A DNA stretch of 677 bases from NCBI RefSeq assembly GCF_003334335.1, contig NZ_QOWQ01000162.1; one strand, written 5' to 3'. Both the position numbers and the translations under genes were made by a program. Below are positions 1-677 of the stretch, piece by piece (the first letter of the stretch is position 1; every line of letters begins with the position of its first letter). The DNA is from Escherichia coli. GTDB taxonomy: Bacteria; Pseudomonadota; Gammaproteobacteria; Enterobacterales; Enterobacteriaceae. Under the pieces are notes generated by a model. That model made no database searches. It was not told where the DNA came from and was given only the letters and a program-made list of their open reading frames with translations.

Positions 1-677
1 GAACGGGTGAAACCACGCCAGTTCTGTTCGCTGCCGGTCAGCATCGCTGCCATATTCTGTGCAATACCGTCAAAGGTCTGCGTGGCCGCGTTTTTAACCT
101 GCGAAAAACTGTCCGTCGCACTTTCCGCCCACTCGCCCCAGCCGGACTTCATCCCGGCCATCCAGCTTCCACGAAGCTGCTCCTCCGCAGACCAGGTGTT
201 CTTCAGTGCAGATGTGGCCTTCGCCAGCGCAGCCGGATTATCACCGTACACGTCACGAAGGCGCTGCTCTTCCGACTCCCGCTGCGCCTGACGGTCGGTG
301 AGGCCGCGGGCTTTTGCGCTGATTGCCGCCTGCTTCGCGCTCTGCTGCTGTTCAAACCGCGCCGCCTGCTGTGCCAGCTCATTCAGCCGCTTCTGGTGTT
401 CAACCTTGTCGCCCAGCTCAGCCAGCTGGCGTTTGTACTCCAGCGTCTCTTTCTCATGGGCCAGCAGGGATTTTTCCTGCTCAGATAACTGCCGTTTCGT
501 GGCGGCCTCTTTCAGGACCACATACTGATTTTCCGCTTTCCATAAATCCCGGCGCTGCTGGCTGATTTTCTCATTCACACCGCTGTGTTTTTCCAGCGTC
601 CTGAGCTCGGTTTCAAGCGCCAGCATGGCTGCATGCGCCCGGTCTTCCTGGCGCTCACCGGCAGACACCTTCACACC
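1..677 (-). CDS. H: Phage tail tape measure protein, lambda gpH-like; internal fragment, partial at both ends (codons occupy 677..3, the two bases at 2..1 belong to the next codon)
   Basis: Seen in sequence: the minus-strand frame beginning at 677 is open across the whole window (225 codons, no stop). It translates to GVKVSAGERQEDRAHAAMLALETELRTLEKHSGVNEKISQQRRDLWKAENQYVVLKEAATKRQLSEQEKSLLAHEKETLEYKRQLAELGDKVEHQKRLNELAQQAARFEQQQSAKQAAISAKARGLTDRQAQRESEEQRLRDVYGDNPAALAKATSALKNTWSAEEQLRGSWMAGMKSGWGEWAESATDSFSQVKNAATQTFDGIAQNMAAMLTGSEQNWRGFTR. Composition is E/K/Q/R/L/A-rich, as expected for a coiled-coil ruler. Established knowledge (recalled, not searched): this matches the central region of lambda gpH, with blocks such as SQQRRDLWKAE, LRTLEKH, RGLTDRQA and TQTFDGIAQNMAAMLTGSEQNWR apparently conserved. 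The ORF track omits this frame, presumably because it has no stop in the window and so is not a closed ORF. Confidence 0.9.
3..110 (-). other. Conserved Trp/Gly-containing block of the tape measure protein, lying just N-terminal of where the hydrophobic segment would be expected (outside the window)
   Basis: Seen in sequence: the translation changes character from charged helix to WMAGMKSGWGEWAESATDSFSQVKNAATQTFDGIAQNMAAMLTGSEQNWRGFTR. Recalled knowledge: in lambda gpH the equivalent block is followed by a hydrophobic Gly/Ala/Ile/Val-rich stretch, which would lie beyond coordinate 1 here. Confidence 0.5.
228..623 (-). other. Predicted alpha-helical coiled-coil segment of the tape measure protein (approximately residues 19-150 of the translated fragment)
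   Basis: Seen in sequence: a long run dominated by Glu, Lys, Gln, Arg, Leu and Ala with few Pro or Gly (e.g. LALETELRTLEKH, LLAHEKETLEYKRQLAELGDKVEHQKRLNELAQQAARFEQQQSAKQAAISAKA). Established knowledge: tape measure proteins are largely extended helical rulers. Boundaries are approximate and no coiled-coil predictor was run. Confidence 0.6.

Follow-up and report, generated by a model that had tools for sequence, protein, structure and literature searches.

A 677-nucleotide stretch of Escherichia coli DNA most likely represents the interior of a lambda-like tail tape measure gene

The stretch of Escherichia coli DNA analysed here, referred to as the window, is 677 nucleotides long and lies inside a gene both ends of which are outside these bases. 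A six-frame stop count across the 677 bases leaves the minus strand with the sole stop-free frame, which runs from base 677 to base 3 and comprises 225 codons, with bases 2-1 forming the start of the codon that follows; the remaining five frames contain between 2 and 14 stops each. The GC content is 50-69%, and the GC skew of the + strand is negative, which is consistent with a gene on the minus strand. A first-pass annotation, made from the letters of the window, had proposed that the interior of one structural gene accounts for every base and that intergenic space is absent. The open minus frame over all 677 bases bears this out and adds the strand of the gene, minus, which had been left unstated. 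Within the window we found neither internal in-frame starts preceded by a Shine-Dalgarno-like motif nor slippery heptamers.

We assign this frame (1-677, minus strand) to the interior of a tail tape measure gene orthologous to lambda gene H, based on the open frame, a gapless alignment to a protein in the PDB, DNA identity to annotated genes, an excess of substitutions at third codon positions and the pN/pS ratio. A phmmer search of the PDB aligned the window protein to residues 459-682 of lambda gpH (PDB 8iyk chain H, 853 aa) with an E-value of 3.2e-103 and not a single gap. The NCBIfam model TIGR01541 (tape_meas_lam_C) matches bases 3-635 of the minus strand (aa 15-225) at 184.1 bits (E 3.6e-54) and thus exceeds its curated cutoff of 104.75 bits although the window covers model positions 2-201 of 332 only. 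Two Pfam families fall within the same frame, namely PF09718 (Tape_meas_lam_C) at bases 6-170 (aa 170-224, i-E 8.6e-14) and, as a weak match, PF24622 (TMP_4) at bases 438-647 (aa 11-80, i-E 6e-4). The Pfam rows beyond the tape-measure families, DUF488, ZNF380_CC and V_ATPase_I, all have E-values above 0.1 and are coiled-coil noise. Among the PHROGs, family 4346 (7e-147) and the tape measure PHROGs 24, 6747 and 1716 were matched.

The window shows 99.0% DNA identity to the gene annotated as "tail length tape-measure protein H" in the Escherichia phages PhiR12_1, _2, _4 and _5. It corresponds to positions 6001-6677 of the PhiR12_1 segment, within the H coding sequence at 5487-8060, and to residues 462-686 of the 857-aa PhiR12_1 H protein. 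The best matches among E. coli genomes reach 99.3% DNA identity and carry the annotation 'phage tail tape measure protein'. Taken together, the PhiR12_1/2/4/5 genes and the H genes of E. coli prophages (e.g. WP_198800528.1, STEC17-183) are 99.0-99.3% identical to the window over 677 bases, which amounts to 5-7 nucleotide differences, and the 857-aa H of PhiR12 and of STEC17-183 is essentially the same gene as the one in the window. No exact match to the window was found among the matches listed in either the phage or the E. coli genome collection. Identity falls to 93% for many Stx2a-converting phages and to about 77% for lambda, 434, 21 and HK629. Of 5426 complete E. coli genomes, 3666 contain sequences that match the window, at a median of two and a maximum of eight places per matching genome.

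The H genes of PhiR12_1 and of the STEC17-183 prophage of E. coli each measure 2574 nt (857 aa) and are located between the chaperone genes G/T and the tip genes M/L/K/I/J. The same neighbourhood probably surrounds the copy studied here, judging by these 99.0-99.3% identical records, the window itself being without flanking genes. The lambda gene order Z-U-V-G-T-H-M-L-K-I-J is kept in the close relatives of the window. The 857-aa protein of the nearest relative is colinear with the 853-aa gpH of lambda at 78% identity, and the eight gap positions in this alignment all fall outside the window. By its score against the family threshold, its colinearity with gpH and the gene neighbourhood in near-identical records, the encoded protein is, as judged from its sequence, a lambda-type tape measure protein. 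We therefore conclude with a probability of about 97% that the window is a 225-codon interior portion of gene H of a lambda-like siphovirus, on the minus strand and most likely within a prophage of the E. coli chromosome; none of the results speaks against this reading. The gene to which the segment belongs is among the most thoroughly studied in phages.

Compared with lambda gpH, the window shows about 76-77% protein identity and 76.8% DNA identity, and both share the same Pfam and TIGRFAM families. The allele lineage represented by the window has diverged from lambda by about 23%, and no structural or domain difference between the two was found. A much more distant and longer relative is the tape measure protein in PDB 9l9p chain B (957 aa), which has conserved blocks in common with residues 17-224 of the window protein (E 4.5e-28) in an alignment that contains several small gaps.

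To compare the frame with its relatives, we fetched 14 homologous segments and aligned them to the window. Substitutions, counted by codon position of the minus frame, number 33/29/99 in comparison with lambda and 5/7/34 in comparison with a 93% identical relative. The pN/pS ratio ranges from 0.11 to 0.33 across the homologues and is 0.22 relative to lambda. The H frame is under purifying selection, and it is open in 12 of the 14 homologous copies. Of the two remaining copies, that of phage 204576 has its H frame broken by gaps at four sites, two bases long at one of them and a single base at each of the others (five columns in all), and that of Stx2a_JNE122398 carries one in-frame stop in the orthologous segment; either sequencing errors or decay of the respective prophage copies would account for these lesions.

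These two frame-breaking cases also bear on the question of whether the segment derives from a decaying, non-functional prophage remnant instead of a working tape measure gene. In favour of such a remnant, many prophages are defective, and E. coli chromosomes very commonly harbour lambdoid tail genes, the median being two places, and the maximum eight, in a genome that has any. The frame in the window is nevertheless intact across 225 codons, and the divergence from its relatives bears the mark of purifying selection given above. In addition, the 99% identical PhiR12 records were deposited as complete phage genomes for which laboratory E. coli strains are named as host. We thus regard an origin from a decaying remnant as unlikely and a working gene H as the more probable source of the segment.

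Some tape measure proteins carry additional enzymatic modules, and the first-pass annotation had stated that no embedded enzymatic domain is present, proposing a domain search of the translation as a check and an additional non-ruler domain as the finding that would speak against it. This search was run, and the significant matches returned by Pfam, NCBIfam, PHROGs and PADLOC for the window belong to tape-measure families only; the extra domain that was looked for was not found. What is left in the PADLOC and profile output are sub-threshold matches such as SMC, Rad50 and JetC at E-values above 0.005, which we consider to be coiled-coil noise. No significant PADLOC match to a defence system was obtained in the window. 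Moreover, as the alignment to gpH 459-682 is gapless, the segment cannot hold an insertion that the reference protein lacks. An embedded peptidoglycan hydrolase, defence or toxin module in this segment would be suggested by prior knowledge only, as several phage tape measure proteins do have hydrolase domains (PMC12617516). Besides the profile searches and the gapless alignment, the model predicted for the segment, which is entirely helical, speaks against such a module, and so does the biology of the reference phage, whose virions are without such an enzyme and whose gpH is not known to have enzymatic activity (PMC12617516). An extra domain is accordingly the least credible of the alternatives considered here, and we read the segment as tape measure sequence throughout, in agreement with the first-pass annotation.

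The window is similarly devoid of repeat arrays, as had been claimed initially: Tandem Repeats Finder returned nothing for it. The only repeats are a 14-nt direct match in two copies and a 12-nt inverted pair whose members are 610 nt apart, both at the level expected by chance. Internal repetition of the protein was also not detected, the best off-diagonal score being 42 in comparison with 35 +/- 5.4 (maximum 48) for shuffled sequences. Within the window, ARAGORN predicted no tRNAs, Rfam gave no match at E <= 1, and neither promoter-like sites nor the Chi site GCTGGTGG occur. Weak terminator-like patterns number three on the + strand, with about 1.0 (sd 1.3) expected.

The claim that a second coding frame with protein-like composition is missing from the window likewise stands, with one caveat, an open reading frame of 94 aa on the + strand (bases 7-291, GTG start) which we tested as a candidate gene antisense to H and judged not to be one. 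The third codon positions of this frame fall on the same bases as those of H, and this coincidence of wobble positions, evident from the coordinates, makes dual coding physically possible. In addition, each of the 14 homologues, lambda (76% DNA identity) among them, preserves both the open reading frame and its GTG start. This degree of conservation is explained by chance. The sole source of stops in the antisense frame is a sense-strand (T/C)TA or TCA that spans two adjacent codons. In synonymous-codon shuffles that preserved both the H protein and its codon usage, the interval remained free of stops in 29-35% of the shuffles of the window and in 18-21% of those of lambda. The pS relative to lambda is practically the same inside and outside the interval (0.600 and 0.605, respectively), which reveals no synonymous constraint. 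The translation of the 7-291 frame has no PHROG or NCBIfam match, its product is rich in Cys, Ser and Ala and thus unlike a real protein, a promoter-like site is absent, and no such gene is annotated in any of the annotated records that were fetched. An overlapping second gene is hence highly improbable, and H remains the one gene that we recognize in the window. The survey of + strand open reading frames covered those of at least 30 aa, and four others, at 206-301, 298-528, 323-565 and 396-488, were rejected upon finding that some of the 14 homologues have lost the start or gained stops. The translations of the other + strand frames had no PHROG or NCBIfam match either.

Folding of the + strand, which is antisense to H, is stronger than expected. 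Its minimum free energy of -249.4 kcal/mol is below that of 150 of 150 dinucleotide shuffles (z -2.8) and 90 of 90 synonymous-codon shuffles (z -3.0); a first test with 20 shuffles had given a z of -3.5. The mRNA strand folds in an ordinary manner (z -1.15 to -1.5). A structured antisense RNA on the + strand could be read into these values, but the excess is diffuse. With a reporting threshold of z < -1.8 for sliding windows, the only 100-nt window of the + strand that passes is +226-325 (z -2.5), and on the minus strand 551-650 (z -2.4) is the sole one to pass; among 150-nt windows there is none. Nor is the hairpin at +226-325 retained in lambda (z -1.3) or in the relatives of 93% identity (z -0.6), and the consensus structure of the alignment amounts to only -6 kcal/mol with negligible covariation. 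The antisense orthologue of lambda folds at -235 kcal/mol, a value that was compared solely with the shuffle mean of the window (about -228 kcal/mol) and not with shuffles of lambda. An Rfam match and a promoter-like site are both absent. We consider a structured antisense RNA very unlikely for these reasons and put the folding excess down to chance within this lineage, in a GC-rich gene with many CAG/CTG codons. The wider notion that the excess stems from an antisense RNA peculiar to the lineage, or from structure of the DNA itself within the tape measure gene, appears just as improbable to us.

Conservation is distributed unevenly along the H segment. The stretch matched by PF24622 contains the conserved motif KISQQRRDLWKAE...RQLS.QEKSLLAH..ETLEYKRQLA.LGDKV, as written from the invariant columns of 11 homologues, and it is the only part in which the more distant genes of Klebsiella, Enterobacter and mEp phages match on the DNA level. 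The block matched by PF09718 is rich in Trp and reads GSWMAG.KSGW.EW.ESATDS.SQVK..ATQTFDGIAQNMAAMLTGSEQNWR.FTR in its conserved positions; this C-terminal, Trp-rich block at residues 170-225 shows the lowest pN in the window (0.02-0.10) and, together with the KISQQRRDLWKAE motif, is where conservation is highest. Amino-acid changes relative to lambda are concentrated at residues ~131-165, the most variable part of the segment (pN 0.30-0.31). As can be seen in a full-length relative, the end of the window (...NWRGFTR) is placed directly upstream of the hydrophobic sequence SVLSM(L/M)TEI.LKQAMVGIVGSIG and a glycine-rich stretch.

A further kind of unevenness was observed between alleles. For those of Stx1, ASU11 and Stx2_12E129, identity to the window is 86-100% in the majority of 50-nt bins from position 51 to 600 but only 48-68% at positions 601-677. 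At positions 1-50, Stx1, ASU11, Stx2_12E129 and Stx1_1649 show 76% identity to the window and Stx1_111698 shows 100%, and at positions 151-250 the identity of Stx2_12E129 and Stx1_1649 falls to 64-76%. These mosaic patches suggest putative recombination breakpoints inside the tape measure gene.

The function of the tape measure protein has been studied in detail for lambda. The 853-aa gpH occupies the inside of the gpV tail tube and determines by its own length how long the tail becomes (PMC12617516, PMC10721106). It is cleaved near a glycine-rich C-terminal region to yield gpH*, which comprises approximately residues 1-690/710, is ejected at infection and makes up at least a major part of the channel through which the DNA crosses the periplasm (PMC12617516, PMC10721106). 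Experimentally resolved gpH residues are restricted to ~818-849, and an AlphaFold3 hexamer of gpH residues 320-691 fits the density of the channel (PMC12617516, PMC10721106). During injection gpH is proximity-labelled by TurboID-ManZ, and a determinant of ManYZ dependence, A304V in region 300-400, maps upstream of the window (bioRxiv 10.1101/2025.11.03.685801).

We obtained an AlphaFold2 model of the segment from an 11-sequence alignment, which consists of four helices spanning residues 6-30, 35-61, 66-144 and 148-224 and contains no strands (pLDDT 61, pTM 0.30). The segment is thus predicted, with low confidence, to be all-helical. Its composition, with 15% Ala, 11% Glu, 10% Gln and 9% Leu, abundant Lys and Arg, one Pro and no Cys, favours helix and agrees with the helical model. 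Since the rise of an alpha-helix is 0.15 nm per residue, the 225 residues would, if fully helical, contribute about 34 nm of ruler length. From its alignment with gpH, the window would encode the last third of gpH*. The segment may therefore be pictured as a set of long alpha-helices that would serve first as a length of the ruler in the tail tube and might afterwards become wall of the DNA conduit across the envelope, stopping just short of the hydrophobic segment and the cleavage zone. Its helical form and its placement in the channel draw on the low-confidence prediction made here and on the AlphaFold3 fitting in the literature, and should be read as tentative.

As gpH 459-682 belongs to the part of gpH* that was recently proposed to line the trans-envelope channel, the variation among alleles may be of help to those who model the channel, for example the variable patch and the near-invariant Trp-rich block described above. 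As a discovery the segment carries little weight, as roughly two of every three complete E. coli genomes contain it; the value of the analysis lies in a clean negative, in that an overlapping gene, an RNA and an inserted domain were each tested as alternatives.

Several minor observations were made in the records used for comparison. PhiR12_1 carries a four-gene insert between the tail genes L and K (positions 2394-4406 of its segment) which is absent from the otherwise matching STEC17-183 prophage. It comprises one gene designated as antirepressor in the note field and three hypothetical genes, two of the latter on the opposite strand, and resembles a moron or accessory cassette placed within the tail operon. 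Between the H protein of PhiR12_1 and lambda gpH there is a zone of sharp divergence at residues ~320-400, outside the window, where six of the eight gap positions are found, the other two being at ~460. This divergent zone coincides with the A304V / 300-400 region of lambda that is reported to govern the dependence of DNA entry on ManYZ. Finally, the record of 'Campylobacter phage CJLB-4' (48,361 bp, host Campylobacter jejuni) contains a lambda-like H at 76.8% identity to the window, which equals the identity of lambda itself, and the record of 'Xanthomonas phage vB_XooS_NR08' likewise carries lambda-like H sequence, which suggests lambda contamination or mislabelling of both records.
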